In this document: positions 24,509 to 62,417 of the stretch, piece after piece
Position numbering within the stretch: the stretch's first letter is position 1
Layout: each line of letters opens with the position of its first letter
NCBI GenBank assembly: GCA_000004985.1
Contig: GG738864.1
From: Naegleria gruberi
Taxonomy: Eukaryota
Length of the DNA: 64,000 nucleotides
Reading direction: 5' to 3' (one strand)
Position numbers and translations under genes: made by a program
Notes under the pieces: generated by a model
Database searches by the model: none
What the model was told of the DNA's origin: nothing
What the model saw: the letters and a program-made list of their open reading frames with translations, nothing else

Positions 24509-27500
24509 TTATTCATTCAAAAATTCAAAACTTGACTCTTCTTGATTCTCAGTTTTTTCTTCCTCCTCATTTCCAGCAATGAAATCAAACGATGATTTTT
24601 CTTCGCTAACTGGTTCTGATTCAGTTGGTTCTATAGTTGATTCAATAATTGGGACTTGTTCAGTTGGTTCTTCATCTCCTGATGCGATAAAATCAAAGGA
24701 CGATTCCTCTTGTTTTGGTTCTTCTTCATTTTGAGACTCTTCAGAAATAAAATTGAAGGATGATGGTTCAGTTGTCTCTTCAGTTGGTTCTTCAACTTGC
24801 TTAGCTTCTTCAACAACTTCTTCAACTGGTTCTTCTTCAGTTTTAATAAAATCGAAAGAGGTTGATTCCTCAACTGCTTCATTATCGTTACTGTCATTGA
24901 AGGTTTGATATTCTTCAACATGTTGCTCTTCTTCTTGTGGAGCCTCACTAACAGTAGTAGTGGCAACGGCTTCTGTTGATTCTTCTACTTTTTCTTCCTT
25001 TTCAGTAACCTTTTCTTCTACCAACTCTTCTTCCACCTTTTCTTCCTTTGGTTCTTCAGGAGGAATTTGAGATTTCAATTCTTCAATTTTAGTTTTGACT
25101 TCTGCAATCTTAACCTTTGTTTCTTCCAATTGTTGGTCCAAAACTTCACATAAATCAAATTGCTCCTTTTCTAAAGCATCATTGATATTGTCATTAATCT
25201 TACTTTCTGATTTCTTCAATTCTTCAAGATTAGATTCTAATTTTACAAGCTTATCCTTTGGAGATAAATTTTCCTCAACAACTTTGACTTCATTAACTTG
25301 GACTTGTTGTTGTTGATTTGGAGATTGCTCTTCAACCTTTTCAATAACTGGAGTTTTAGGTTTTGGTACCTCTGGACTATTGATTGACTTTTTCATTTCG
25401 AGCAATTCCTCATCTGATAGTGAAATAATTGACTTAAGCTGTCTAACTTGATAATTGAAAAGAGCAATTAATTCATCAATAACATCAAATCTCAACTTGA
25501 GTTGTTCAGGTGCTTCAACTTCTAAAAGCTTTACGCGATTTTTTTCCAAGAAATCTATTCTCTTCAAACACAATCTAATGAATCGTTTAGAATCCACCTT
25601 ATCAACTTGTTCAAGTCTGTTGTGGGTAGCATCAAGTTCTTGGGTCAATCCTAGCTTTTGTTCCTCCAATTGTGTTTGTTCTTGCTTTAAGCTTGGGATA
25701 CTTGATTCAAGTTCCTGAATCAATTTGGTTAATTTATCGCTTTCTTCTTTACATTGAGCAGCTTCCTTAAATTTACGTGCTTTAGCATATTCAAGCTTGT
25801 CTGCCTGTACTTTTGGCAATCTATCATTTGCTCTTTGAAGTTGTTGAGTTGAGTTATCCAATTCCATTGAAACAGATGAGAGATGAGATTTGAGGGTAGA
25901 CAATTGTTGACTGAGAGCTCCTAATTCCTTAATTATTTGAGGTCTACTGTCATTAGGTGAACCTGGACATTCTTCCAGTTTATCCAATTTTTCAACCATG
26001 TCAATTATTTGTGAAACTCTTACTTGTTGGGTTTGTAGGTAGTCCTTGTATTGTCTCTTATCCATCATGGCATCATATTTCTTGGTTTCTTTGGTTTCAA
26101 TATTGGTCAAGTCCTTATTAAGAGTTGCAGAAAGTTTTTCAAACGAATCAACATCATCCAAATAATTTTGCTTTCTCTTTTGGAATTGTTCCTCATCATA
26201 AGATATCAACTTGAGTTGTTCATTAAAATCTTCCTCATACTTCTTGATTTTGTCTGTAACATCACTAAGTAAAGAAAGAACAGTCTTTTGTTCTGCTCTC
26301 TTTTCTTTCAACTTTCTTTCAAGTTCAGCAATTTCTCTAGAGATTTCTTCATTTTGATCTCTTAAATTATCTTCTTGAATTCTCAAATCCTTTGTAGAAT
26401 AATCAATTTGGTCAGTAATTCTTGTCTTTCTCTTTTGGAATTCATTCTCTTCCAATTTAATGCTTTCACCCATTCTCTTGATACGATTAGTTTCTGATTC
26501 TAATCTTTCACGACGTAATTCCTTCAATGGATTATTTTTCTTTAAAAAGTCATCATAATCCTTCTTTGTTGTTGTAAATGAGAAATCAACTCTTGAGTAA
26601 ACAAGATTGATTTCCTTCTTCATTTCAGTCAAAGTCTTAGAAATTGCAGAAATATAAGAATCGTTATTTTTCTCGGTCACTTGAATTTCTTCAATTTTTG
26701 TTCTCAACTCTGTTAATTCTTGTTCAATTTGTTCAGCCTTCTCGAATTCTTCCTGTTCAGTATATTCATCAAGTAATTGTTCGAGAGATTGAATTTTTTC
26801 TTGAAGAAGAGAGAATTGGTTCTCCTTCTTTTCATCAATCTTCTTTTGTTCTTCATCAAGCAATTTTGAAATTCTAGTTGAATATTTTGTAAGAGATGAA
26901 TTAATTGTAGACTTGATGTTTATCCAATCATTATCTACTGTTTCCTTTTCCTCCTCAATAGTTTCCGATTTGAAGGAATCTCTTCTTGTTGGTTTTTCCT
27001 CCTTGATTGATGTAACAACTGGACTTTCAATATGCTTTACAGGAGTAGAAGCTACAGGAGTTGAAGCAGAACCAACTTCAGAACTTGAACTACCTCTATC
27101 AAGTCTTCTTGGCTTGACTTGTAAAGAAGCAAAATCAATATCATCAGAAGGGCTTGAGGATTTTCTTGGTTCTGCAACTACTGGTGATGGTTTTAATTTT
27201 GGTTCCTCATCCTCAGTAGTCTTCAGAAATGATGAAATTGTAGAATCATCTTGTTCCTCATCCTCATTAGTATTACTATTGTTATTTGATTGAATGTGTG
27301 TTGTTAATTGAGAGCTGTGATTCAACTTAATATTATTTTCAATGTTTGAAAATGTTTTTTGAGCCATTGAATATTCTCTATCCAATTCATCACTTGTTTG
27401 ATCCAATTGTTTTAATTCTTCATCAACCTTGCTATTTTTTGCATTCTTTCTTCTTCCTTTTCCTACAGATCGATTGATTTTAATTTGACCAGGAATTGGT

Positions 27501-46344: not shown

Positions 46345-49300
46345 TTAAGTATCTTCCTCCTTAACAGTGTAGAGGTGAGAATGTTTGTATACATGTCTAA
46401 GTTGTTCCTTAAGGAGATTGAATGGTTTTTGATGTTGTTCAATCTCAGAGTTGTGATTCATGCATTTTTCAATTAGATTCTTGCTGATATCTTGTAAGGT
46501 ATATCCAAATGATTCTCTATATACTCTAAAGAGTTTTGGAAGGATAATTATATTATTGGATTGAGAAGTAGAGTTGTTGAAATTGTTAATAATTTTGATG
46601 TTTTGTAGGAGGAATAATTCTGTTTCCTTTCTGACAAATGATTCATAGTTTTCTGGAGTAATGTATGGGAATAAAGTACAACAATTTCTCATTCTCATAT
46701 TCTTGAATTGTTGTGAGTTTGGAAGGATAGATATTTGAGATTTTTCATTCCACAATAGCTCACCATATCTGTACATTATAAATATCAATCTCAAATCAAC
46801 ATAATTAGAGTAGAAAGAAATAAATCGTGATCTTCTATCAAAAGATTTCATACCATTCCCATTCAAAACATTGATTGGAGGAGCTAACAATTTACTAGAG
46901 CCAACAATATTTTTCTGGTCGTGAGACATATCTGTAACAATACCATTAGGATAGCTCTTGTTTCCTCTCAAAATTCCATCACGAATGTCAGAAAGTGAAA
47001 ATATCAAGCCATCAACTTGATAAGCCATTCTATTATAGAAAATGAAAGTGGCATTATTTCCCACTAGTCTATACTTGCTGCTAGATCCCATTATCAATAA
47101 AGAATGATAGAATAGTGTTAAGAATAGGTTCAAAAAGAAACATCTGAATCTAACTCGTTCATTCTTTTCTTCATGAACATCCATAAGACTAGAAAGATCA
47201 ATTCTTGATAATTCATGGCAAAGAGGAAGTAACTGAGTTAGGTAAATGTGGTTTGTACACACAATTTTTCTAGAATGTTGGGATACAGTCTTGAAGAAAG
47301 TGGCATTTCGGAAATTATACTTTTCATATTTAGGGAATATTCCTTGATACATTTGTCTTAGGTATTCCATTAATTTGTAAAGAACTGCATTAGGTTCACA
47401 CCTATATGGAATGTTTTCAATCGATTCAGGATATGAAAATACGTCACTAATAGGTAAACTCATGTTAATAACTCGGATTGGGTTATCATTACTAAATCTA
47501 TACAAATAATAGCCATCAATAAATGATAGCCCATAGTTAACATGGTGAATAATGTTGGACTCAAGGAGAAGTTGATAGAATTCAACTGCTTGCTTTCTAC
47601 TTTCCATATTAATTACAACAAATGGTTGGCTGAGATCATTATTTTGGGTGTTGTTAAAATTCAAAAGCAAATCTATCGCCTCTTTAGATTCGAAACATTT
47701 TCTGTAAATCTTTCCTTTCAATAAATTATACAATGAAGTTGAATAATTACTTTGCTTTGGGTAACGAACTCTATCCAGTAGGGTAAGGTTATTCTTCAAA
47801 TAGGCTATTACAACTTGAATGTGTGAAACTAACTGATCAATATCGTGTGCCAATGGAAAGAATTTTTTAAGCTTGTTCAATACAATAATATCGTCCTTAT
47901 AGAGAAGAACCAATGAATTGATAGCAGAAAGTGGACCATCTACAATATTATTCTTAGGCTTCTTATCATTGGATGTAACTTGCTTGTACATATTAATCTT
48001 TGAAACCTCTTTCTTATTCAGGAATGATACATCATATTGATACTTTACATATTGGCCATAAATGGTTTGGTTATGAGCTGGTACAATATAAGGGGTTATT
48101 GATTTGGATTCAAACTGATTTTCAATAAAGTATTGAGAAATATATTCATCATATTCCTGTGATCTTTGAACTGATTGATCACTAATATTCTTTTCCTCAA
48201 TTAATTGGTTATTAAATTCGGTGGTATAATTAGAATACATATCCATATCATAACTAGGAATAACATTTCTTTCTATACATTTTCTTGCTTGTAAATTATT
48301 GTAAATAGAATTAACATCTACATTATAGAAATCTCTCAATACTTCAAATGAAATATTTGGATACTCATTACTCATTTTACCTTCTAATGATCTCAAAATT
48401 TCTCCCTGAGGAAGAACAGTTGTAGAGCCATTCTCGTTGAGAGTAAGCTTCATAGAGTTCATAATACTCTTAAGGATTTTTTCATTCTCTGCCACATTAT
48501 CAGAAGGTGTTGGGATTGGTGAAGTAGGTGATTTTTCTTGTTTCTTTTCGTGTGTCTTATTCTCCATTTCTTTCACTGGAAGAACTGATTCGATTTCATC
48601 TTCAACTTCAGAGTTAATAGTCAAAGAGAGCTGATCTAGCCTTTCATCACTCAGGTCTGTTATTTGTCTTGGATTATATGTTTCATCAAAATAGAGCTGG
48701 GAGGTAACTTGATTAGATACTTCCTCTTCATCATCTGAGTCATCAGAGTAATCGTCACAAGAGTCTTCTTCATCAGTAATCATACTTAAATCCCTATCAT
48801 CGTGTAAATAAATATCACCACTTTCCAAATCCCACAAATGTACTCCAAACAATCTAATGTGGAAACTTGGTTTATAGTTACCCAAAAATATATTGATAGC
48901 ATGTTGTTTCCACTCATCTTTAAAGTTACTACTATAATATCTTTTCATATTTGTCATTAAATCAGCCAAAACACCTCCTCTATTGTGAATATCAACACTA
49001 ACTGTTCTACTTCCACTGTATTGAATAGCAATATGGTCACTAACTTGTTCATACATTTGCATTAAAATTAAAATGAATTGACCATGGTGAACAAGATGAG
49101 GTGATTCAATAATTCCCAGTGAACATAATTGTTCTCCAAGAACATATTTGGCAATAATAAATTGAGCTACACCTGTTCTATCAAGACAATCAATACAATT
49201 AGTTCTTAAAACACCAGATTGTTCCTGTATCACTTTTCCATACTTGGATGTTGTGAAAAATTTACATTGTCTTACATGATTTTCTGCAATTGCATGGAGT

Positions 49301-51090
49301 TCATTCAATGCCTTTTCAGGTTTGTCTTTAATTGCATTCCTGAAATCAAATGGAACATATTCTATATGCTTCTTTTGTTTGAATGGTTCTTCATTTTTGT
49401 AAATATTCCTGTTAAGATATTCTATGCAAATCTTGAATTTTTCTCCCAATATTATTTCTCTTGGTTTTTTCTCGTGCTGTTTCACTAGATCCAGACACAT
49501 GATTGGAGAACCTTCGTATCTTTCGAATAGGTTATTGAAATGATGCATACTATCCAGATAGAGAGGATCAAATTTTGTAATAATAATATTAGGTTTTGAG
49601 AGTAGGTTTGATGTGGATGCTTTTGTTGTGGTAGTAGTAGTATTCTTTTGATCGTTTTCATCGACAGTGGTCGTGGTAGTGGTCATTGTTGTAGTGGTAG
49701 CAGTAGATTGAGACCAATATAGAGGAATACTTCCTCTCACTTGAACAAAGCTACTAAATGCACCTTGAGATTGATTATTGAATAAATGGTGATTTGCTTC
49801 ATAAACTATTTGCTCAATTTCAACATGATTGGCCACATGACCTCCATCTGAAATACCTCGTTTAAGGTATCTAGTACCAGCATAATATCGACTTCTCCTT
49901 GCAATAACTGTCAATACAATAGATATATTACTGTTACCTGTTTTAATTTGATTTTTCTGGAGTGTTTTGTTGAATTCTTCATGTTGAGAAGGTTTCATTA
50001 ATTCCTTTGAAGAGTTTCTTTTAACTGGCACTGGTTTGGTATAATCAGCAAGAGCCATTGAAACCTTGGATTGAATAAAGTGGCCATGAATGCATGGACA
50101 CATCCATTTAGACATTTTCGTCCTCTTCAATGGTTCAAGAAGATGTGAATTCCAAACAAACATATCACATGTTGTGTTTTTTGGTTCATCTCCATAAGTC
50201 ACTATTGGTGTAGAGTTTTGTTGCAATGTTTTTGTGAGATCATAGTTATAACTAAAGTAAAAATCCTGATTCAAATTAATATTATTAAATAATTCCTTAT
50301 ACTTGTCTTCGATTAACTGTTCTTGTTTTGAAAGGTTGTCATGCATAGATAATTTCACTAATTTAGTATCTTTAATTTCATAGACACTAGCATTACCAAT
50401 CATTCCAACTTTAAGTCTATCCGTTATCAAAACCAAATAATGATGAGATTTGAGTTCAATAAACCCCAAAATGCCATAAATATTATTAGTATGGAGTTTG
50501 ATATCTTGTTGAATACTCTTCATTGCAAATTTTATCATGTGCAATAGATCATTGATTTGTTTCAAGCTATACTCTCCAGCATCTTCATTTAAATAATTGA
50601 CAATGTCACAATCAGCTCCATTGGGTCTATCAATTTTTAACATTTTATACTTTGTTTTTGATCCATTGCATCCAACAAGATAAAATCTATTATATGCCTC
50701 GTATAATGTAAAGTTGCTATACTTTTCACCAAATGTAAAATCAATTTTACTATATTCACATTCAAATGATGAATTAAATTCCTGTTGAGGAATATCGTCT
50801 CCTCCCGTCTGAATATCCGTATCAGAATTGGTTGTGATGGGCTGAAATGATGAAATTGGAGGTTGAATTGGTGATGATGGTTCCACTACTTGTTCTTCAA
50901 CATTTCTCATTCGGGATTGATCTAATATTGGCGAATCATCATTGAATTCGTAGGTTGGTGATTTTTTGGATTTTTGATCACCATAGGGTGTGTTCTTTTG
51001 TGGGCTCGTATTTGAAGATGAAGGAACGAGCAACCTTTTGATGAACATTTTTTTTGTTAAAAAATCTTTTAAAGAAGCACTTAATATCAT
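46345..51090 (-). CDS. SAC-domain phosphoinositide phosphatase with a very long C-terminal extension (1581 aa)
   Basis: RTNCIDCLDRTGVAQ (the CX5R(T/S) catalytic motif) plus upstream SAC blocks (RYLKRGISDGGHVANHVEIEQIV, VQVRGSIPLYWSQ). Single exon, ATG start, TAA stop. Confidence 0.7.
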   Translation of the reverse strand: MILSASLKDFLTKKMFIKRLLVPSSSNTSPQKNTPYGDQKSKKSPTYEFNDDSPILDQSRMRNVEEQVVEPSSPIQPPISSFQPITTNSDTDIQTGGDDIPQQEFNSSFECEYSKIDFTFGEKYSNFTLYEAYNRFYLVGCNGSKTKYKMLKIDRPNGADCDIVNYLNEDAGEYSLKQINDLLHMIKFAMKSIQQDIKLHTNNIYGILGFIELKSHHYLVLITDRLKVGMIGNASVYEIKDTKLVKLSMHDNLSKQEQLIEDKYKELFNNINLNQDFYFSYNYDLTKTLQQNSTPIVTYGDEPKNTTCDMFVWNSHLLEPLKRTKMSKWMCPCIHGHFIQSKVSMALADYTKPVPVKRNSSKELMKPSQHEEFNKTLQKNQIKTGNSNISIVLTVIARRSRYYAGTRYLKRGISDGGHVANHVEIEQIVYEANHHLFNNQSQGAFSSFVQVRGSIPLYWSQSTATTTTMTTTTTTVDENDQKNTTTTTTKASTSNLLSKPNIIITKFDPLYLDSMHHFNNLFERYEGSPIMCLDLVKQHEKKPREIILGEKFKICIEYLNRNIYKNEEPFKQKKHIEYVPFDFRNAIKDKPEKALNELHAIAENHVRQCKFFTTSKYGKVIQEQSGVLRTNCIDCLDRTGVAQFIIAKYVLGEQLCSLGIIESPHLVHHGQFILILMQMYEQVSDHIAIQYSGSRTVSVDIHNRGGVLADLMTNMKRYYSSNFKDEWKQHAINIFLGNYKPSFHIRLFGVHLWDLESGDIYLHDDRDLSMITDEEDSCDDYSDDSDDEEEVSNQVTSQLYFDETYNPRQITDLSDERLDQLSLTINSEVEDEIESVLPVKEMENKTHEKKQEKSPTSPIPTPSDNVAENEKILKSIMNSMKLTLNENGSTTVLPQGEILRSLEGKMSNEYPNISFEVLRDFYNVDVNSIYNNLQARKCIERNVIPSYDMDMYSNYTTEFNNQLIEEKNISDQSVQRSQEYDEYISQYFIENQFESKSITPYIVPAHNQTIYGQYVKYQYDVSFLNKKEVSKINMYKQVTSNDKKPKNNIVDGPLSAINSLVLLYKDDIIVLNKLKKFFPLAHDIDQLVSHIQVVIAYLKNNLTLLDRVRYPKQSNYSTSLYNLLKGKIYRKCFESKEAIDLLLNFNNTQNNDLSQPFVVINMESRKQAVEFYQLLLESNIIHHVNYGLSFIDGYYLYRFSNDNPIRVINMSLPISDVFSYPESIENIPYRCEPNAVLYKLMEYLRQMYQGIFPKYEKYNFRNATFFKTVSQHSRKIVCTNHIYLTQLLPLCHELSRIDLSSLMDVHEEKNERVRFRCFFLNLFLTLFYHSLLIMGSSSKYRLVGNNATFIFYNRMAYQVDGLIFSLSDIRDGILRGNKSYPNGIVTDMSHDQKNIVGSSKLLAPPINVLNGNGMKSFDRRSRFISFYSNYVDLRLIFIMYRYGELLWNEKSQISILPNSQQFKNMRMRNCCTLFPYITPENYESFVRKETELFLLQNIKIINNFNNSTSQSNNIIILPKLFRVYRESFGYTLQDISKNLIEKCMNHNSEIEQHQKPFNLLKEQLRHVYKHSHLYTVKEEDT

Positions 51091-51104: not shown

Positions 51105-51980
51105 TTATTTATCAGAATTTGAATCATTGGATGGTTTCCTATTCGAATACGAATATTGAAGTGCAAATTTAACACAACGTTGGAAATAATGACCTTCCCA
51201 AAAGAATTTTTTGCAAGTTGGACATTTTGTGACTGTTTGACCGTACAGATCATAAATTCGTTTTCCTCCCATAATTTTGGTCAATTCTTGAATTTCTTCT
51301 TCAGTAGTTGCTTTGATACACTGTACAGGATCGTTGCATTTCAAACATCTGGTGTAAATTTTTGCTGGATGAAACATGAGGTGGAATGATTTTACAATAT
51401 CTGAAATTGAGTCATGAAACTCAACTTTTCTTGAATCAATGAAAAGATATCGAATTTGTTTTGTTTCCTCATTATTCGAATTTTCTTCATTTTCTTCCTC
51501 GTCACTATCATAATAATCTTTCACTTTTGGTTTAGTTCCCTTGTTTTCACTCTTAATTTTTGAAGCCAAAGAAGCAGATCCAGTAACTATTATTCTATTC
51601 TCTGATCTAGCTTTATAAATAATATAATTCGTGGAATAGGATGGATCACTAATACAATCATATCCCAGTAATCTGATATGTTTGGCAATTTTTGAAATAC
51701 TTGTATCAGCAATAAATTTTGTATTTCGGAAAAAGCCATTAATTTCAGTTTGTTCTTCCTCAGTACAATCCACAAGAGGTTTATCTTGTTTTAAAACTCC
51801 CTTCGGAAATGTAAAATTCGATGTTTGTTCATTATTCTCCTTTTCCTCTTGATTCAGTACGAGAGAATTTGTTTGATTGATAATAGACATCATTTCTTCA
51901 TCCAAAAATTCATCTTCCTCTCCATTTGCTTGTTCGTCCACATTCCGAGCCTCCATCATAGGTTCATTACTTGCTAACAT
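51105..51980 (-). CDS. Mut7-C / PIN-like RNase-domain protein with C-terminal zinc ribbon
   Basis: HIRLLGYDCISDPSYSTNYIIYKARSENRIIVTGSASLASKI resembles the Mut7-C domain core. C-terminal CLKCN...CPTCKK Cys pairs. Acidic N-terminus. Confidence 0.4.
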   Translation of the reverse strand: MLASNEPMMEARNVDEQANGEEDEFLDEEMMSIINQTNSLVLNQEEKENNEQTSNFTFPKGVLKQDKPLVDCTEEEQTEINGFFRNTKFIADTSISKIAKHIRLLGYDCISDPSYSTNYIIYKARSENRIIVTGSASLASKIKSENKGTKPKVKDYYDSDEEENEENSNNEETKQIRYLFIDSRKVEFHDSISDIVKSFHLMFHPAKIYTRCLKCNDPVQCIKATTEEEIQELTKIMGGKRIYDLYGQTVTKCPTCKKFFWEGHYFQRCVKFALQYSYSNRKPSNDSNSDK

Positions 51981-52216
51981 TTTTTATTTGTCTTTGCAAC
52001 AACTATTGTGTATTTCTTCAAATGGAAAAGAGTAGCATCTTCATGTTACGCTCTAAAATAGTACATTCTTATTACACCAGTTATTAATATTACCATTCAT
52101 CATCAAGTTGTTTCCTCTTCTTCCTACCTTGATAACATAAGAGAACGTTACGAAAGCAAGACTTTCTAAAAAATTTTGAAGTTGAAAAAATATTCAAAAA
52201 AATTGAATTGAAAAAA

Positions 52217-55200
52217 ATGTCCACCGTCATAGCAAAGAGCCTTCAATTCAAATTTTATTCGGACGAGGATATTGAAAAATTGTCAGTTCTCGAAGTTGAT
52301 AATGCTATTACACACGATGAATTCCAAATACCTGTGCGGGGAAGTTTATATGATCCAAAGATGGGTCTTAGGGACAATGATGGACCAATGGCAAGATGCG
52401 AAACTTGTGGATTGGTGAATACATTCTGTCCTGGACACTTTGGTCATATAAGTATTCCACAACCTGTTTTTAATGTATTGTTAAAAACCGACGTAACACA
52501 AGTTATGAATTTATGTTGTCCTTTTTGCGAAAAGTTGCATATACCAAAGGAAGAAAAGACAATATTATATTTGGTTTTGAGACTCTTAGATTGTGGATTA
52601 CCTTCCGAAGCCATGGAGTTAAACGATAAACCTCTCATGTTTTTGAGAAAGTACGGAAATGAACAAGAGGAAGAACCTATGAGCGAAGAGGAAGCAGAAG
52701 AAGGTAAAAAGAAAAAGAAGAAAAAGAAGAAAAAACTTGATTTGGAAACTGAACACTACAGATTTGAAGATGATTATCAAAAGCTTGTCTCAACTACTTT
52801 AGGTCTTATCCAACAACAAATTTTAAAATACGACGTGTCGAATGAATTGGAGCTCCATTCAAAATTCTTAAATGACGAAATTGTCTTTGATTTAAAACAT
52901 CAAATCAAGGAAAAGATTATGAAGACACATGCCCATCCACCTCTTTCCAAGATTAAGACTACAGGTTGTAGAAATTGTAAAGCTGTAAGAGTTCCATTTG
53001 CTATTCTCAACAAGGATTGTGTTGCTTTGCACGAGACTACTGTTGTTAATTTTGAATTTTTGAAAGCTCTTAAGGAATGGCATGGTAAATGTATCCACAA
53101 GGATTATGCTGACAAGAGTTTATTCGATGATGTGGACCAAGTTGATACCGTTCTTAAAAAGAGAATTGAAAAGCCATTCTGTTTAGCTAATAATTTCCAC
53201 TTGATGACAACTAAAATTTTGAAGGAAACTACTTCACTTTTCTATAATTACCTTCACACTGATGAAGTAGTAGATATGCTTGACCGTGTTTATTATAATG
53301 GTATTGAAACAGCTCTCAATGAAGTTTTATTCAAGATGGATATCAACAATGAAGAAGAACATTTATTTGATCTTATTGCTGGAAGTATCCAAGATAATAG
53401 AATCAGATATATGGATTCTTATATTTTACACTCCTTTTTTGATAACAGTCCTGCTCTCATGTTTACTAAGAAGGTTTTGGTGATGCCAGTTCGTTTCAGA
53501 CCAATTTCTCCTCTTCATATTGCTGCTAAGGAAGAAGGTAAAACTATGGTTACCTACGTTAAAACTGATATTGATATTCACTACATTAACGTTTTAAAGA
53601 CAAAGAAACTTTACGAAGATATTCAAGCTAAATTGGGAACAAGTACTATCAGATCTGATAACACAGCTATTGCTGTTTTGAGAGCTCTCCAATGTTACAT
53701 TAACGATATGTTGGACAGTACAAGTAATACTTCTTCTGGGTCAAATAGATTCTACTCATCACTTCTTAAGAAGAAGAAAACATCTACTACAACTTTGAAT
53801 CGTGGTATGAAACAATTGATGGATAAAAAGGCTGGTTTAGTCAGACAATCTATGATGGGTAAGCGTGTCAACTACAGTGCTCGTACAGTTATTTTGCCTG
53901 ATGTTGCTATTGCTTGTAATGAAGTCAGTTTCCCAGCAATGTTTGCTAAGAAGATGACATTCATGGAAACTGTCACTAACTTTAATATTAACAAGATGAG
54001 AGAATTAGTTATCAATGGTGCTAAACAATATCCTGGTGCTAATCAAATCGTTAAGAGTGGTAAAACTCAATCTGATGTTTCTTCCTCAACAGCTGTTGCT
54101 CCATATACTCGTCCTCCACTTTCAATTCAACTTAATGTTGTTAAATCAAAGAAACAAAGAGTTGCTATGGCTAATCAATTGCAAGTTGGTGATGTTGTCT
54201 ATCGTCACCTCCAAGATGGAGATATGTTGTTGATGAACAGACAACCTTCATTGCACAGACCTAGTATTTTAGCTCACAGAGCTAGAGTTATTGCTAACCA
54301 ACGTGTTATGCGTCTCCACTATGCCAGTTGTAAATCTTTCAATGCTGACTTTGATGGTGACGAAATGAATGCTCACTTTGTACAAAACCCAATTGCTCAA
54401 AGCGAAGCTCGTCAATTAATGGATGCTCAATTGTCTTTCTGTACTCCTACCAGTGGTGAACCATTGCGTGGCTTAATTCAAGATCACGTTTCATCTGCTG
54501 TCTTGTTGACTATGAAAGATAACTTTTTATCTCGTGAAGATTATCAAGAAATTTTGCTCAGTGCTAACATTTTTGATGTCAATGAAGTCATTCGCTCTGA
54601 AATTCCATCCATTTTGAAACCAACACCTTTGTGGACTGGTAAGCAAGTTATTACAAGTCTTTTGAAGCATGTTGCCAAGAAGAATACTCCAGCTGGTGCT
54701 CCAGTTTTTGGTGTCAATTTGGATTGTAAGACTAAGGTTAAAGGTACTGTTTGGGGTGCTCACAACGAAGAAGGAATGGTCATTATTAGAGATAACGAAC
54801 TCTTGACTGGTATTTTTGATAAGTCTCAAGTTGGTTCTTCAAAATATGGTATTTTGCACGCTTTTGATGAATGTTATGGTAACAACGCCAGTAATATGCT
54901 CATTTCATGTTTATCAAGAATGTTAACTTTCTACTTGCATTACTTTGCCATCAGTTGTGGTATTGATGACTGTCTCCTTTCCAAGTCTGCTGAAGCTAAC
55001 CGTATTGAAACTTTGAAAAACTCCAATGAAGCATGTCATCATGCTACTGCTTCCTACTGTGGTCTCCCAAAGAAGAAGGATGCTTCACAATATGATCACG
55101 ACAAGGTTAAGGAATTTTTGGCCAAACATATGCTTAACCCAACTGTTTCTAAACAAACAGGTGAAATTATCAATGAAAAGATTGTCCGTAAATTGGATTC

Positions 55201-57484
55201 AACTGTCAAGAAGAGTATTAACAAGTTCACAACAAAGGCTATCAATGATTCTATTCCTATGGGTCAATACAAGGCTTTCCCATACAATATGCTTTCACTC
55301 ATGACTGAAACTGGTGCCAAGGGTTCTATGGTTAACTCTTCACAAATTGCTGTCTGTTTAGGTCTTCAAGAATTTGAAGGTAAACGTGTTAACGTTCAAG
55401 TTAAGAGTGGTAAGACCCTGCCATCATTCGATTCTTTCGATTCAAACAATATTGCTAACGGTTACGTTGCTAGTAGATTCTTGACTGGTATCAAGCCACA
55501 AGAATTCTTCTTCCATTGTATGGCTGGTAGAGATGGTCTGATTGATACTGCTGTCAAGACAGCTCGTAGTGGTTACTTGCAAAGATGTTTGATTAAGCAC
55601 TTGGAAGACCTTTCCGTTCAATATGATGGTACTGTCAGAAATGGAAACAAGACAGTCGTCCAATTCTCTTACGGTGGTGACCATATTGATCCAATCAAGA
55701 CTGGTTATATGACTCAATTCGATTTCATGAGAATGAACCAAGATTTACTTTCTCAAAGATATAATGAAGAATCAGCTATTCAATACACTAAGGATGTTAA
55801 GGAATGGCAAGAAAAGACTAAGAATGCCACATCTACTATTTATAAGAACGACTTTGTTCAAATCGAAGATCCATGGAATTATTTGGGTGGTGTTTCTGAT
55901 GCTTACGATAAGAAGCTCAAGAAGTACATTGAGGCAACTAAGACCACTACTTTGTCTGATACAAAGAAGAAATTCGACCCAGAACGTATCAAGACATTGG
56001 CTCATCTCAAATATCTCCGTAGTTTGGTTAACGCTAGTGATCCAGTTGGTATTATTGCTGGTCAATCTATTGGTGAACCTTCAACACAGATGACTTTGAA
56101 CACTTTCCACTTTGCTGGTTTGGATATGGCTCACGTTACAGTTGGTATTCCTAGATTGGTTGAATTGTTGATGAGAGGTACTACTCGTGTCCTCACAATG
56201 AATGTTCCAGTTAAGAAGGAATGCGCTCAATACCAAGTCGAAAAGATTTACCAATATGCTGATAGTATTTCAAAGTTGCCATTCTTCAGAGTTTTGACTA
56301 ACATGGACATTCAAGAACAATTCAAGTTCTCCGTTGACGTTAAGCGTAAACAAATTTCAGTTTCTCTCTTCTTTGATATGAAGGACATTACTGAATACTA
56401 CCAAATTTCTAATGATGTTTTTGACAAGAAGGTTCAAACTCTTCTCATCTTGTTAACAGCAAGAATTGTTTCTCCAAAGAAGCTCATGTACTCTAGAATG
56501 AAGGCAATGTTATCCAAACTTGCCAGTTTTGGTGGTACTGGTGCTGTTGCTGATGGAGCTGCACCAGCTGAGGCAGAACCTGAAGAAAACAAGGAAGCCA
56601 CACCAATGGATGCATTCATGGGTACTGATACAGCTGAAATGATGAAAGAGGATAGTGATGAATCCAATGTAAAGAAACCTAAGAAGAAGAAAAAGAAGAG
56701 TGATAGCGACGACGAAGATGAAGATAATGACGAAGATGAAGAAGAAAAGAGATCTAAGAGAAAGAAGAAGAGGGATGAAGAAGAAGAAACACAAATTAAT
56801 AATGATGAAGGCCTTTCTGGAGAAGACCTTTTCATTAAGACTTTCGGATCTGCTTTGGGTGAATATGATGAACATTCTATCAATGCTAAGGAAGGTGTTG
56901 TCACTTTCACATTTACTCAAAAATCAGATGCTGGTAAGGTTTACATTGCTGAAGGTATTCAAGATGTTTTGAAGAATTGCTTCTTACAAAGTGTTGACGG
57001 TATTGAAAACGTTACAGTTGTTCCAACTAATGATGGATACGATCTTTCAATTGAAGGTTTCAACTTTTATGCTTTGCACGCTCTTCCAATGTCCCATGAA
57101 TTGCTCGACCTCAATCGTTTGGTCACAAACAATGTCAACATTATGAACGACCATTATGGTATTGAATCAGGATACGGATTGATTGTTAAGGATGTTTCTT
57201 ACGTCTTTGACATGTACGGTATGGAAGTCAGTCCAGCTCACATTCAATTGATTGCTGATTACCTTACATATCGTGGTTACTATTCCTCATGTAACAGATT
57301 TACCATTAAGAACAGCCCTTCAACATTCTACCGATCTTCTTTCGAACAAGCTTGTCAAAATCTCTTGAAGGCTGCTGTCAGAAGCGAAACTGATACTATG
57401 GTTTCTCCAACTGCTCGTGTTGCCTTGGGTACACCTGTTAGTGTTGGTACTGGCAGTTTTGATTTGTTGCTTGTAAATAAGTAA
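52217..57484 (+). CDS. RPA1: DNA-directed RNA polymerase I largest subunit (RPA1/A190)
   Basis: About 1755 aa single exon. Zn-binding N-terminus (CETCGL...CPGHFGHI), active-site NADFDGDEMNAHF, trigger-loop and cleft regions. Pol I-specific acidic/lysine-rich insert near the C-terminus. The track ORF starts at a TTG at 52208; first ATG at 52217. Confidence 0.85.
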   Translation: MSTVIAKSLQFKFYSDEDIEKLSVLEVDNAITHDEFQIPVRGSLYDPKMGLRDNDGPMARCETCGLVNTFCPGHFGHISIPQPVFNVLLKTDVTQVMNLCCPFCEKLHIPKEEKTILYLVLRLLDCGLPSEAMELNDKPLMFLRKYGNEQEEEPMSEEEAEEGKKKKKKKKKKLDLETEHYRFEDDYQKLVSTTLGLIQQQILKYDVSNELELHSKFLNDEIVFDLKHQIKEKIMKTHAHPPLSKIKTTGCRNCKAVRVPFAILNKDCVALHETTVVNFEFLKALKEWHGKCIHKDYADKSLFDDVDQVDTVLKKRIEKPFCLANNFHLMTTKILKETTSLFYNYLHTDEVVDMLDRVYYNGIETALNEVLFKMDINNEEEHLFDLIAGSIQDNRIRYMDSYILHSFFDNSPALMFTKKVLVMPVRFRPISPLHIAAKEEGKTMVTYVKTDIDIHYINVLKTKKLYEDIQAKLGTSTIRSDNTAIAVLRALQCYINDMLDSTSNTSSGSNRFYSSLLKKKKTSTTTLNRGMKQLMDKKAGLVRQSMMGKRVNYSARTVILPDVAIACNEVSFPAMFAKKMTFMETVTNFNINKMRELVINGAKQYPGANQIVKSGKTQSDVSSSTAVAPYTRPPLSIQLNVVKSKKQRVAMANQLQVGDVVYRHLQDGDMLLMNRQPSLHRPSILAHRARVIANQRVMRLHYASCKSFNADFDGDEMNAHFVQNPIAQSEARQLMDAQLSFCTPTSGEPLRGLIQDHVSSAVLLTMKDNFLSREDYQEILLSANIFDVNEVIRSEIPSILKPTPLWTGKQVITSLLKHVAKKNTPAGAPVFGVNLDCKTKVKGTVWGAHNEEGMVIIRDNELLTGIFDKSQVGSSKYGILHAFDECYGNNASNMLISCLSRMLTFYLHYFAISCGIDDCLLSKSAEANRIETLKNSNEACHHATASYCGLPKKKDASQYDHDKVKEFLAKHMLNPTVSKQTGEIINEKIVRKLDSTVKKSINKFTTKAINDSIPMGQYKAFPYNMLSLMTETGAKGSMVNSSQIAVCLGLQEFEGKRVNVQVKSGKTLPSFDSFDSNNIANGYVASRFLTGIKPQEFFFHCMAGRDGLIDTAVKTARSGYLQRCLIKHLEDLSVQYDGTVRNGNKTVVQFSYGGDHIDPIKTGYMTQFDFMRMNQDLLSQRYNEESAIQYTKDVKEWQEKTKNATSTIYKNDFVQIEDPWNYLGGVSDAYDKKLKKYIEATKTTTLSDTKKKFDPERIKTLAHLKYLRSLVNASDPVGIIAGQSIGEPSTQMTLNTFHFAGLDMAHVTVGIPRLVELLMRGTTRVLTMNVPVKKECAQYQVEKIYQYADSISKLPFFRVLTNMDIQEQFKFSVDVKRKQISVSLFFDMKDITEYYQISNDVFDKKVQTLLILLTARIVSPKKLMYSRMKAMLSKLASFGGTGAVADGAAPAEAEPEENKEATPMDAFMGTDTAEMMKEDSDESNVKKPKKKKKKSDSDDEDEDNDEDEEEKRSKRKKKRDEEEETQINNDEGLSGEDLFIKTFGSALGEYDEHSINAKEGVVTFTFTQKSDAGKVYIAEGIQDVLKNCFLQSVDGIENVTVVPTNDGYDLSIEGFNFYALHALPMSHELLDLNRLVTNNVNIMNDHYGIESGYGLIVKDVSYVFDMYGMEVSPAHIQLIADYLTYRGYYSSCNRFTIKNSPSTFYRSSFEQACQNLLKAAVRSETDTMVSPTARVALGTPVSVGTGSFDLLLVNK

Positions 57485-57589: not shown

Positions 57590-59794
57590 TTATCTTCTTT
57601 TATAGTAACTGTTATTATTGCCACCACCATAGCTTGAGTGATAACCTCTTCTTGCACTGGTATTCACACAATCTCTCAAATACTTTGCAATAGATGAATT
57701 ATCATATAATGTACCTATTCCGACATAGTCAAAGTATTGTTTGAAAGATGAAACATTTTGAATCTTGAAAACTTCACGTTGTAACACATCTTCCAACAAT
57801 TCACCACTCTTTGTCTTTGGAGGACAGCCAAAGTTTGTATCGTACAATCTTCCAAATTCTTCCAAGGAGAGATCACTATATTCTTCAACAATGTTTCTCA
57901 AAAAGAAGACGTGGAACATGATCAATTTGCAGGAAACTTGGTTTGCTTCCCATGATTTGATACATCTTTCAGAGTCCATTTCGTTGAATCTAGCCAATCC
58001 AGGATGCATCTTGATAACCCACAATGCATTTCTAATTGAGGTTTCTTCAACAACAGAGGTCTTAATTGAGTTCCATGTTAATTTACTTGGACCCAGAACT
58101 GAAAGCTTTGGAAGGAATTCTCCAAGATTTGGACAGGAGCTCTTTAATCTAGCGCTTTCAGAGTTCTTGAATTGATTGACTTGATACTTTAAACGATCCA
58201 AAGCTTGTGGGAATTTTTCAATCAAGTAAATTAACCAACGATGGAAGTACATGTAACCGTAGAGAGCTTTGATTGAGGCATGAGTATTACCTTTCATAAT
58301 TTCAACAACCATAGTATTCATCAACTTGCACATCAATTCAATATAAATTGTTGCATTATCTAAGGATTCAGAGCTTGAAATTGAAGGATAAGCAATTTGA
58401 ATTTTCATCACTGACTGTTTCAAAATCTCAAAGTTACCATGCTTTCTGTTGATAAATACTGGGATCCAGTGAGAGAAACATCTTCCCCAGACACTCTTTC
58501 TGACATTCTCCTTATAGAAGGAAGTGTGAGAGAGAAGATCCAGAGGAGTTGAAATTGAGGCAATTGTGCCATCTTTCTTAGTTTCGAAAGATAGACCAAC
58601 ACCAAGTGTATCCTCATTAAATGTTTCCTTAGAGTGGAAACACACTAATTCTCTGGCTGTAGACAAGAATTTGTGTTCACACAAATCATAGAGATATTTG
58701 CTAGACTGTTCAACTCTCTTCAATTCAATAATATTAAGATAGCTGAGAGTGTGTAAAATCAATTCGTTAGGTAAGTCTTTGAGATGCTTCTTTGGTTCAG
58801 GAGTTTTCTTCAACATGCTTACAGCAATTAGGTTTTTGGAAGGTTGCGCAGGAGAAGCTGTTTCAATAATGGTTGATGATTCAACTGCAGACTTTTTCTT
58901 TTCCATCTTTTCTTGAACTTTCTTCAATCTGTTCAGTTTCTTTTTCTTGTTCTTTCCAATGTAGTTTGGATCCTTGGCTTCATCTTGAGATGGTTTTGGT
59001 TGTTCTTCCTTCTTGGCAACAACCTTAGTTGGATCAACATATTGAAAAGGAATATCCCAGGCATTTGTGTTGACTGGAACTGCTTTAGGTTCTGGTTTGG
59101 TTTCTACTGGTTTAGTTTCAGCTATTGTTTTAGGTTCTACAGGTTTAGTTTCAACTTTTGGTTCAACCGTCTTTGGAGTTTCTTTCTTTGGAACTGGCTT
59201 GACCACAGGTTTGTCTTTCTTTAGAACGACAGCTTTAACAGGTTGTGGAACATACTTTGAAGCAAGAATTTCTGAAACATTCCAATAAGGAGCACATGGA
59301 TATATGGTTCCCTTTGTTGGATTGTGTCCAGTTGTGGAATTAACATATTTCCTGGAAGCGTCAATATCACTCTGTATATATCTTTCCTGTCTATCCTCTT
59401 CTTCCAATAAGAATGATTGTAATTGCAACAAGATTGACAAACAAGAGTAACTTGTACTCCAACCCATGTATGGAATATCGTCAAAATAGTGAGCTTTCAA
59501 CATGTCCAAGCAGATCCACCCACCAAAAACGTGAGAGTGATGCAATTGAGTAAGGCAAGCAATTTGTGGAGGTTCATTAGGATAATCCTTTGGAAACTTG
59601 ATATCCAATACAACAATAATTCCATGATACTTGGATGTCTTTGGAGCTAACACAGTTGCATACCAATGAAACATGTCTCCTTGAAATGGCTCAGCATAGA
59701 CAGTTTCTAATGGATTCGATTGAATTTCCTTCAAGTCTCTCGTTATTCTTTTGAGAGCAGAAGAAGGGAGAGCCTTCGAGCTGCTGCTATTCAT
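57590..59794 (-). CDS. Ubiquitin-conjugating (UBC) domain protein with central K/P-rich linker and an F-box-like motif
   Basis: N-terminal UBC fold ...KFPKDYPNEPPQIACLTQLHHSHVFGGWICLDML (active-site Cys; the HPN triad reads HSH). PKxE/KPV repeats. LPNELILHTLSYLNIIELKRVEQSSKYLYDL is F-box-like. ATG start, TAA stop. Confidence 0.55.
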   Translation of the reverse strand: MNSSSSKALPSSALKRITRDLKEIQSNPLETVYAEPFQGDMFHWYATVLAPKTSKYHGIIVVLDIKFPKDYPNEPPQIACLTQLHHSHVFGGWICLDMLKAHYFDDIPYMGWSTSYSCLSILLQLQSFLLEEEDRQERYIQSDIDASRKYVNSTTGHNPTKGTIYPCAPYWNVSEILASKYVPQPVKAVVLKKDKPVVKPVPKKETPKTVEPKVETKPVEPKTIAETKPVETKPEPKAVPVNTNAWDIPFQYVDPTKVVAKKEEQPKPSQDEAKDPNYIGKNKKKKLNRLKKVQEKMEKKKSAVESSTIIETASPAQPSKNLIAVSMLKKTPEPKKHLKDLPNELILHTLSYLNIIELKRVEQSSKYLYDLCEHKFLSTARELVCFHSKETFNEDTLGVGLSFETKKDGTIASISTPLDLLSHTSFYKENVRKSVWGRCFSHWIPVFINRKHGNFEILKQSVMKIQIAYPSISSSESLDNATIYIELMCKLMNTMVVEIMKGNTHASIKALYGYMYFHRWLIYLIEKFPQALDRLKYQVNQFKNSESARLKSSCPNLGEFLPKLSVLGPSKLTWNSIKTSVVEETSIRNALWVIKMHPGLARFNEMDSERCIKSWEANQVSCKLIMFHVFFLRNIVEEYSDLSLEEFGRLYDTNFGCPPKTKSGELLEDVLQREVFKIQNVSSFKQYFDYVGIGTLYDNSSIAKYLRDCVNTSARRGYHSSYGGGNNNSYYKRR

Positions 59795-60501: not shown

Positions 60502-62417
60502 ATGAAACAATCACTCTTGCTAGTTGTTGCTGTTTGTTCCGTGATGGCAATGTTATTGTCATCATTGGCCGTGGCACAAACTGAAAAGGATCATCTCGTT
60601 ACAACTCTCCCTGGTTATAAGGTATGTTTGTTTTATTGCATGGATGCTGATATGCTGAACCATTGACAATAATGCACGGGCAAATTATTCACAAATATTC
60701 ACTCTTGTATGAATTTTAATAATAATTAATAATATAGGATGGTAGAACACCACTTCCATTCAAATCATATACTGGTTATTTATTGGCAAATCAAACTAGA
60801 GGCCATTACTTGTTTTATTGGTTTTTTGAAGCTCAAACAAATAGTGACACAGCTCCTCTTGTTTTCTGGACAAATGGTGGACCAGGTTAGTAGTATAATC
60901 TGTTGTGGCATTCAATATTTTCTATGAAAATCATGCAATTTTTTTATGATATGGAACTATACAGGCTGTTCAAGTCTTGGAGGAGAAGCCAGTGAACGTA
61001 TGTATTTAAAAGTTATTATCAATTGAGGATCATTTAATATTATATAGATGGATTTTTACTTGTCAATGCTGATGGTGCTACTTTGAGAGAAAATCCATAC
61101 AGTTGGAATAGAAAGGCCAATATGTTGTACATTGAACAACCTATTGGTGTTGGTTTCAGTTATTCAAATCATACTTCTGATTATGGAGTTGTCAATGATG
61201 TGATGGCTGCTTCTGATATGGCTAATGCTTACAGAGATTTCATTAAGAGATTCCCAAAGTTTTTGAATAGAGATGTTTATTTGTCAGGTGAAGTAAGTAT
61301 ATTCACACATTGAATGAGATTGAATTTCTTACCAAATAATAGTCTTATGGAGGAGTTTATGTTCCAACTACTGCAGCTGAAATTATTCAAGGAAACCAAA
61401 ATGGACAAGTCCCATACATTAATTTGAAGGGTATTTTAGTCGGAAATGGTGTTACAGGTATGTTTACTGAAATGTTAAATTCCATAACAATTATTTCTAG
61501 ATGCTGAGGCTGACGCAAATAGCATTCCACCAATGATGAAATATCACAGTTTGATCTCTATCAAGTATTACGAGCAAGGTTTTGCTGCATGCAAGGGTGA
61601 TTTCTTTAACAATCAAAATGTTCCAGCTTGTGCTCAATTTTTGGACCAAAGTAACAATGTCATGGGTAATATTAACCCATACTACATTTATGACAGCTGT
61701 CCATGGTTGGGTATTACTTCTCAAAAAGCCAAGATTTCATTCCAAGAAAAGAAATTCAATGTTTTGAATGAACAAGGAAAGAAAGTCGATGTTCATCCAC
61801 TTTTCCAAATGTACAAACATGGTGGTTGGTCAAAGAGAGTTGCATTGCAATCAAATTCTAAGGTTAGAATGGAGTCTGACAGTCCATGTGTTCCAAATCA
61901 ATCCATTGCTAAATATTTCAAGAGATTGGATGTCCAAAAAGCCCTTGGTATTCAACACGGAACTGTTGATCCAAATGGTTGGGATATCTGTACCAATGCC
62001 ATTAATTATACTCAAGTTTATCCAAGTATTCTTCCATTCTATACAAAGTTGTTGCAACACATTAGAATTCTTGTTTTCTCTGGTGATGTAGACATGGTAA
62101 GTTCTCCATATTTCTAATTGTTTTTAATAATTACTAATTTTAATATTTTAATTCCATAGGTTGTTAACTCTTACGGAACTCAAGCTGCTATTGATAAATT
62201 GCAATTGCAAGAAACTTCATCTTGGAGAACTTGGGAACATGAAACAGTTACTGGAACAGTTGTTGGAGGATATATCAGAAAGTTTGGACCAGGCGGAAAG
62301 AATGGACAAGGATTGACCTTTATTACCATTAGAGGCGGTTCTCACATGGTTCCTATGGTGAAACCAGAAGCTGCTCTCACCTACTTTACTAAATTCTTGG
62401 ATGGTGATTGTTGTTAA
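60502..62417 (+). CDS. Serine carboxypeptidase (peptidase S10), secreted, about 7 exons
   Basis: Signal peptide [25 protein letters not shown]. Exons encode ...[42 protein letters not shown]..., catalytic [14 protein letters not shown] (GESYxG), and C-terminal ...[20 protein letters not shown] (His). Introns with GTATGT/GTTAGT/GTAAGT donors. Confidence 0.75.

Follow-up and report, generated by a model that had tools for sequence, protein, structure and literature searches.

A Naegleria gruberi protein joining a probably Rad6-like E2 domain, an F-box and a predicted UBR4-type E3 module

A 64,000-nucleotide stretch of Naegleria gruberi DNA (contig GG738864.1 of NCBI GenBank assembly GCA_000004985.1), referred to here as the window, carries a gene at 57590..59794 (-) whose 734-amino-acid (aa) product joins an N-terminal ubiquitin-conjugating (UBC, or E2) domain, a disordered linker, an F-box and a C-terminal domain of ~350 aa. 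The predicted fold of this last domain matches the hemiRING-UZI E3 module of the human ubiquitin ligase UBR4. A sequence-only reading of the window had described an E2 domain and an F-box-like helix in one polypeptide and had suggested a self-contained E2-adaptor; both domains are real, but the suggestion omits the C-terminal ~350 aa. Because this region is structurally related to UBR4 hemiRING-UZI alone, the protein is better described as an E2-E3 hybrid with an F-box. The explanation preferred here, to which we give about an even chance, is that of a cis-acting hybrid between a Rad6-like E2 and a UBR-type E3, docked to Skp1 via its F-box.

The coding sequence at 57590..59794 (-) is complete and consists of a single exon, an unbroken open reading frame (ORF) of 734 aa running from ATG to stop. 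Its product is identical (100% identity, 100% coverage) to an N. gruberi “ubiquitin-conjugating enzyme family protein” in NCBI and UniRef, and this public entry is already annotated with Pfam PF00179 and PF12937. Two adjacent genes, or a missed intron or stop, are ruled out by the continuous ORF, the identical annotated protein and the recurrence of the architecture in other genera, and the proposal that UBC and F-box share one chain therefore stands.

The C-terminal domain (aa 378-734) has no Pfam match, and hmmsearch of the PDB with profiles of the domain (from 15 and 30 sequences) returned chance matches only, to homeodomain-like and Drs2 chains at E values of 0.1 to 0.6. The AlphaFold 2 (AF2) model of aa 378-726, based on a 15-sequence alignment, has a predicted local distance difference test score (pLDDT) of 87.8 and a predicted template-modelling score (pTM) of 0.87 and comprises a small beta-rich N-terminal part and eleven helices. 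Foldseek returned a sole match at E≤0.001, PDB entry 8b5w (“E3 module from UBR4”), with a probability of 1.00 and a template-modelling (TM) score of 0.63 in both directions, and all other matches had TM scores of ≤0.25. The modelling used no templates, both UBR4 entries in the PDB were released in 2023, and the AF2 training set is older than these entries; the match therefore does not reflect a memorized structure. In the model, the hemiRING-like subdomain (aa 378-470; 58385..58663 (-)), whose boundary to the next part was set from secondary structure, begins with the conserved C385-F-H-S-K loop; an extended beta-hairpin (397-405 and 411-415) comes next, and then a short helix, one strand and the helix at 455-468. 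This beta-rich part is packed on a UZI-like helical subdomain (aa 471-722; 57629..58384 (-)) with 11 predicted helices, as in the UZI of UBR4, and the predicted two-subdomain fold as a whole matches that of hemiRING-UZI.

Among the closest known systems is the UBR4 hemiRING-UZI module (human aa 4831-5183; PDB 8b5w and 8btl; Barnsby-Greer et al. 2024, PMC10873205). At the C-terminal end of human UBR4, a hemiRING (aa 4835-4948) with a single C2HC zinc site (C4838, C4841, H4887 and C4890) is packed against a UZI subdomain made up of 11 helices. The hemiRING contacts UBE2A through the canonical surface for RING binding, reading Arg7, Arg8 and Arg11 of helix 1 and Arg95 and Ser97 of the post-active-site loop, and the UZI activates E2~Ub modestly (PMC10873205). 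The module was said to be unrecognizable from sequence, and UBR1-3 probably contain an analogous RING-UZI (PMC10873205). The Naegleria domain is like the UBR4 module in having a small beta-rich N-terminal subdomain followed by 11 helices, in its putative partner, a probably Rad6/UBE2A-type E2, and in its location at the extreme C terminus of the protein. Unlike the UBR4 module, which ends a 574-kDa N-degron ligase with a UBR box, it is fused to an E2 and an F-box within 734 aa.

Among candidate zinc ligands of the hemiRING-like part, compared over 138 full domains, C385 is invariant, and H452, H387 and H442 are found in 133, 91 and 72 domains, respectively. A conserved four-ligand zinc site was not found across the 138 domains. 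The N. gruberi protein has all four residues, and these could form a site. By position, the conserved C-F-H-[ST]-K loop may correspond to the first zinc knuckle of UBR4, which is part of the E2 interface there, as each lies eight residues into its structure.

The UBC core (aa 10-136; 59387..59767 (-); helix 1, ALKRITRDLKEI) is recognized by both profile and structure as a member of the PF00179 superfamily, as proposed from the sequence, with a Pfam UQ_con match at aa 16-134 (E=2.6e-21; 76.2 bits against a cut-off of 27). When a profile of 25 family UBC domains was searched against the PDB, the top 13 matches were all Rad6/UBE2A/UBE2B orthologues (101-104 bits), with UBE2D at ≤99 bits. Furthermore, the family consensus for helix 1 is A..RL.RD.KEI, with RRL.RD in several members and RR..R in some relatives, and the N. 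gruberi protein has K15-R16-I-T-R19-D20 where UBE2A has R7-R8-L-M-R11-D12. The post-active-site family motif GWS.SYS..SILLQLQSFL parallels UBE2A RWSPTYDVSSILTSIQSLL, and both the basic helix-1 pattern and a helix-2 motif WS..Y..SIL..QS.L are similar to those of Rad6/UBE2A/UBE2B. Automatic public annotation labels two family members “E2 2,” a name of Rad6. A Rad6-like identity of the UBC domain at the level of the family profile is probable, not proven. The N. gruberi protein differs from Rad6/UBE2A/UBE2B in having HSH rather than HPN, in an insertion of ~8 residues after the catalytic Cys and in the replacement of the last UBC helices by a different C-terminal extension. Rad6/UBE2A/UBE2B are the cognate E2s of UBR-family E3s, and the pairing is striking: the type of E2 used by UBR ligases would here be fused to the type of E3 module that UBR ligases carry.

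The extension that follows the UBC core (aa 137-190; 59225..59386 (-)) is predicted to be structured, with pLDDT values of 92-98 to ~aa 180; short strands lie between its two helices (134-149 and 173-178), and the family keeps H157 and P166 without exception. Alignments of the family place an F-x-C-x-x-C-x-H...W-P motif, which may be a small zinc knuckle, right after the UBC core in most members. The Naegleria group, including this protein (Y-V-N-S-T-T-G-H157...P166), has lost both Cys residues of the motif and kept the His and Pro. In structural alignments, the C-terminally extended E2s UBE2Z, UBE2O and BIRC6 align over 158-171 residues, versus just 130-140 for plain, isolated E2s in the search with the full-length model. 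UBE2O and BIRC6 combine a UBC domain and further elements in one polypeptide that acts without a separate E3 (PMC12818219). The N. gruberi protein, with a UBC domain and predicted E3-type elements in one chain, is comparable. Nevertheless, outside the UBC domain there is no relationship to UBE2O and BIRC6, which lack an F-box and a hemiRING-UZI-like module and have their UBC domain toward the C terminus rather than at the N terminus.

The linker (aa 191-335; 58790..59224 (-)) is rich in Lys, Pro, Val and Glu and mostly disordered, with pLDDT values below 50 over aa 202-274, 307-317 and 319-329, and neither its length nor its sequence is conserved among homologues, which cannot be aligned here. 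The KPVE repeat linker described earlier is correct in composition but not as a repeat array: a 27-nucleotide (nt) unit at 59079-59130 is present at the DNA level in just ~1.9 imperfect copies, and the region was treated as a low-complexity disordered linker. A long charged helix (KNKKKKLNRLKKVQEKMEKKK...; pLDDT, 84-89) is confidently predicted inside the linker at 58877-58954 (aa 281-306) and seems to be counted within the rigid body of the full-length model.

That model, from a 60-sequence alignment, has a mean pLDDT of 83.7 and a pTM of 0.78, and 573 of the 734 residues (78%) have pLDDT values of ≥70, the remainder being the linker and termini. The UBC domain, the extension at aa 137-190, the F-box and the C-terminal module are predicted to form one confident rigid body, since the pTM equals the ordered fraction. 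In the structural search, RING-first fusion chains (4r8p_L, 8uqe_B and 8jwu_A) align over ~132-146 residues with poorer root mean square deviations. By this indirect test, the model has at least ~40 residues that can be overlaid on a RING in its canonical position on an E2, although these residues may come from the post-UBC extension.

The fusion belongs to a large family. A profile search with the C-terminal domain found 2,809 cluster representatives at E≤1e-3, of which 1,017 are at E≤1e-30. Local hidden Markov models (HMMs) applied to the best 160 of the 2,809 representatives detected a UBC domain in 111 and, in 52, UBC together with an F-box; 6 had an F-box but no UBC domain, and many of the remaining sequences among these 160 are fragments. 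The constant core is the UBC domain plus the UBR4-like module, sometimes separated by just ~60-90 residues, and an F-box occurs in some members only. Pfam domains in members without the family-type F-box include LRR, RRM, S1, CCCH zinc fingers, TerD, SPRY, ankyrin, VWA and CLU, and 8 of 45 such members have a divergent F-box-like match. By analogy with E3 families, in which such a pattern is usual, these changeable accessory domains may serve in targeting.

A search of public proteins returned 17 close homologues that share the order UBC, variable linker, F-box and conserved ~350-aa domain; their sources are three species of Naegleria, Willaertia, Acrasis and metagenome or transcriptome sequences. 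Members are found in Heterolobosea (N. gruberi, N. fowleri, N. lovaniensis, Willaertia and Acrasis), in Amoebozoa (Acanthamoeba, Balamuthia, Arcella, Pellita, Pyxidicula, Protostelium and Soliformovum), in the diatom Seminavis robusta and in the chytrid Rhizophlyctis rosea. As the F-box takes the same position in the diatom and chytrid proteins and in several from Amoebozoa, the three-part architecture is old or widely spread. The architecture, which had been called unusual, is indeed so by the standard of model organisms but recurs, and N. gruberi itself has at least three full-length copies (this protein included) plus one fragment. The other N. gruberi loci found (NAEGRDRAFT_59412, NAEGRDRAFT_65426 and NAEGRDRAFT_76881) comprise two full-length paralogues and one 233-aa gene model, which shares 80% identity with the 734-aa protein over its C-terminal domain and may be a fragment or a recent duplicate. 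Word-indexed homologue searches with the C-terminal profiles returned only 18-23 proteins, none of them characterized, and none of the family members found has a functional name. Literature searches for E2-F-box fusions, hemiRING/UZI fusions, or Naegleria or Dictyostelium Skp1 interactomes with such a protein found nothing relevant.

A more far-reaching explanation is possible rather than probable. The proteins would form an ancient and widespread class of autonomous ubiquitin enzymes, each a permanent union of a Rad6-type E2 with a UBR-type (hemiRING/RING-UZI) E3 module and hence a “Rosetta-stone” fusion of the Rad6-UBR pair, with an F-box subfamily mounted on Skp1. The Skp1-mounted unit, possibly with Cul1-Rbx1, would occupy the position of a substrate receptor and so give an SCF-like complex that has two ubiquitin transfer centers or a built-in E2. 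If these proteins do form such a class, their hemiRING-like part might function with a reduced zinc site or with no zinc site at all.

The F-box (aa 336-375; 58670..58789 (-)) lies directly N-terminal to the C-terminal module. Pfam F-box-like PF12937 matches aa 339-375 with 26.2 bits, above the gathering score of 24.3, and PF00646 reaches 19.6 bits, slightly under its cut-off of 20.5. An F-box-like domain was found in 16 of the 17 homologues (best E=2.8e-11), and the family consensus, LPxE[IVL]LxxIFS[FY]LxxxDLxxxxxVC[RK]x[FW], is that of a canonical F-box. The F-box-like helix named in the sequence-only reading, whose worth was to hang on HMM significance and on one-gene status, is thus confirmed on both counts, and a chance match is ruled out by the Pfam gathering score and the recurrence across the family. 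Three short helices (343-350, 355-362 and 366-372) are predicted with pLDDT values of ~91-93, and in a sequence search of the PDB the best matches were F-boxes from Legionella AnkB (E=0.024) and from FBXW7 (E=0.75).

Whether a cullin would take part depends on how the F-box is used. An E2-E3 hybrid whose F-box acts outside any Skp1-cullin-F-box (SCF) ligase, either in a Skp1-only complex serving stability, dimerization or localization or as a relic, appears rather unlikely. Such complexes have precedent, as non-SCF Skp1-F-box complexes are well established in yeast (e.g., Rcy1 and Ctf13). The N. gruberi F-box departs from the family consensus at core position T349, at the consensus VC (S364-S365) and at the W (L368), and the subthreshold PF00646 score and the many family members without a detectable F-box are also consistent with a non-SCF role. 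Against it, the PF12937 match is above the curated cut-off, the F-box position is conserved over four eukaryotic lineages, and the characteristic residues are retained (L341-P342, E344, L345/I346, L350, L353, E357-L358 and L371, including the hydrophobic core positions).

A conventional SCF receptor with a tethered E2 comes close to the E2-adaptor originally envisaged and is improbable. The F-box would sit on Skp1-Cul1-Rbx1, the C-terminal domain would bind substrates in the manner of WD40 or LRR domains, and the tethered UBC domain would be engaged by the Rbx1 RING, raising the local E2 concentration. Like SCF receptors such as Skp2, FBXW7 and Legionella AnkB, but with an E2 in the same chain, the protein has a canonical F-box N-terminal to a large folded domain, which directly follows it in the usual place of a substrate-binding domain, and the disordered linker of ~145 aa could span the SCF arch. 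However, the fold after the F-box is that of an E2-binding E3 module and not WD40, LRR or another known substrate-binding fold, and the C-terminal domain remains fused to UBC in members without an F-box. In addition, AF2 packs the UBC domain onto the rest of the protein rather than leaving it free, and the UBC profile is closest to Rad6, with Cdc34/UBE2R-type E2s ranking structurally well below Rad6 and UBE2D.

The last alternative concerns the active site. In the alignment to UBE2D, “lhhshvf.ggwicld” lies opposite “iyhpninsngsicld,” which places Cys95 (59510..59512 (-)), the presumed thioester cysteine, at the catalytic position and H86-S87-H88 (59531..59539 (-)) at the HPN position (Pro to Ser, Asn to His). 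The catalytic Cys and the Asn-to-His change had both been noted before; the Pro is lost as well. Of 92 full-length family UBC domains, 87 have Cys at the catalytic position, 43 keep HPN and ~25 show H-x-H (Asn to His), among them 7 with HSH and the whole Naegleria/Willaertia group. Fifteen of the 17 close homologues have a UBC domain covering the HPN position, with His for Asn, and all 15 keep the Cys. Asn to His at HPN is also the signature of the UBE2W family, whose enzyme is active and in which the second His was proposed to assume the role of the Asn (PMC4630614). UBE2W differs in being HPH, with the Pro kept, and in being a single-domain E2 that targets N-terminal amino groups. E2s without HPN tend toward non-lysine chemistry (PMC9527308), and by analogy an altered chemoselectivity of the H-x-H variant is a real possibility; within an autonomous E2-E3 class, H-x-H may likewise redirect chemistry away from lysine, as in UBE2W.

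The suggestion that the UBC domain is noncatalytic like a ubiquitin E2 variant (UEV), with HSH unable to catalyze and the protein serving as a scaffold or regulator that, for example, occupies Skp1 or autoinhibits its own E3-like module, is distinctly unlikely: HPN lacks both Pro and Asn, the UQ_con match spans just the first 113 of 140 profile positions (1-113), and the post-UBC CxxCxH motif is also lost, but the sequence comparisons do not favor a dead E2, because Cys95 is conserved, UBE2W is active with the same Asn-to-His change (PMC4630614; PMC9527308) and H-x-H, being common to ~25 members, is a maintained state rather than decay.

For the preferred explanation, a Rad6-like E2/UBR-type E3 hybrid docked to Skp1, the following course of events is proposed. 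E1 would charge Cys95 of the N-terminal Rad6/UBE2A-like UBC domain with ubiquitin. The C-terminal domain, a divergent and probably zinc-poor counterpart of UBR4 hemiRING-UZI, would bind the UBC domain on its usual helix-1/loop surface, in cis or in trans within an oligomer, and, like the UBR4 module acting on UBE2A, would promote the discharge of ubiquitin. The sites at which E2s bind E1 and E3 overlap, and the long disordered linker would free the E2 from the E3 surface for recharging by E1. The F-box would dock the enzyme on Skp1, which could supply localization, partners or substrates, or control of turnover. If Cul1-Rbx1 were also bound, a ubiquitin transfer center would itself stand in the “receptor” place of an SCF.

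Several points weigh against this explanation. All of its support is computational, consisting of the domain assignments, the match in fold, the conserved architecture and the AF2 prediction of one compact body. The likeness to UBR4 is at the level of fold only, with 11-13% identity, and HMMER profiles of the C-terminal domain reach no UBR4 chain in the PDB at E≤10. As sequence homology to UBR4 was not detected, what is claimed from the models is that the fold is common to both and the mode of action probably so; membership of the UBR4 family is not claimed. The C2HC zinc site of the hemiRING is not conserved over the 138 full domains, in which a CxxC or HxxC pair is absent. Rad6 outscores UBE2D only narrowly (104 versus 99 bits), and phmmer against the PDB with the 734-aa protein alone ranks UBE2D first (UBE2D1/2/3 at ~2e-20). 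The canonical HPN is not present upstream of Cys95 in the N. gruberi protein, and the HSH in its place could impair isopeptide formation. The extra residues of the full-length model that match 8v0d_A could belong to the post-UBC extension and not to the hemiRING-like part, and the F-box of this protein lacks the consensus VC and W.

The gene lies in nuclear DNA with a GC content of ~33%. Its convergent neighbor at 52208-57484 (+) encodes a 1,758-aa RNA polymerase largest subunit with Rpb1 domains 1-5 and poly-Lys and acidic insertions, probably that of Pol I, and the stop codons of the two genes are ~100 nt apart. Farther along, 46345-51090 (-) encodes a 1,581-aa protein with a SacI phosphoinositide-phosphatase homology domain, DEP and DUF547, and is adjoined by a 291-aa ORF with a Mut7-C RNase domain at 51105-51980 (-). 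A 915-aa ORF at 21746-24493 (+) with a VWA domain and an INTS6 beta-barrel resembles Integrator subunit 6, and the 965-aa ORF beside it (24509-27406 (-)) has no Pfam match at E≤1e-5. Short ORFs in several frames at 60502-61313 (+) look, by eye, like exons of an intron-split serine carboxypeptidase (S10).

The protein was already in the databases with its UBC and F-box domains marked, and it is a variant of known themes, namely E2/E3 hybrids, the Rad6-UBR pairing and F-box proteins. The new element, which rests on structural models, is the recognition of the C-terminal domain as a UBR4-type E3 module, together with the conserved logic of the fusion. The UBR4-type module was described only in 2024 and said to be unrecognizable from sequence. 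If the assignment is true, the module would not be confined to giant UBR ligases but would be the core of a large protist family (2,809 representatives), and its fusion with a Rad6-like E2 would be evolutionary evidence for the pairing of Rad6/UBE2A with UBR modules that is independent of the crystal structure. A compact protein of ~700 aa would also be far easier to use in studies of the hemiRING-UZI mechanism than the 574-kDa UBR4. Given an F-box that sits between E2 and E3 module, one can ask whether SCF scaffolds are able to bear a built-in E2-E3 unit instead of a substrate receptor. For Naegleria (among them the pathogen N. fowleri), Acanthamoeba, Balamuthia, diatoms and chytrids, the finding would further provide a functional hypothesis for many proteins whose present label is “hypothetical,” “ubiquitin carrier protein” or “E2 2.”

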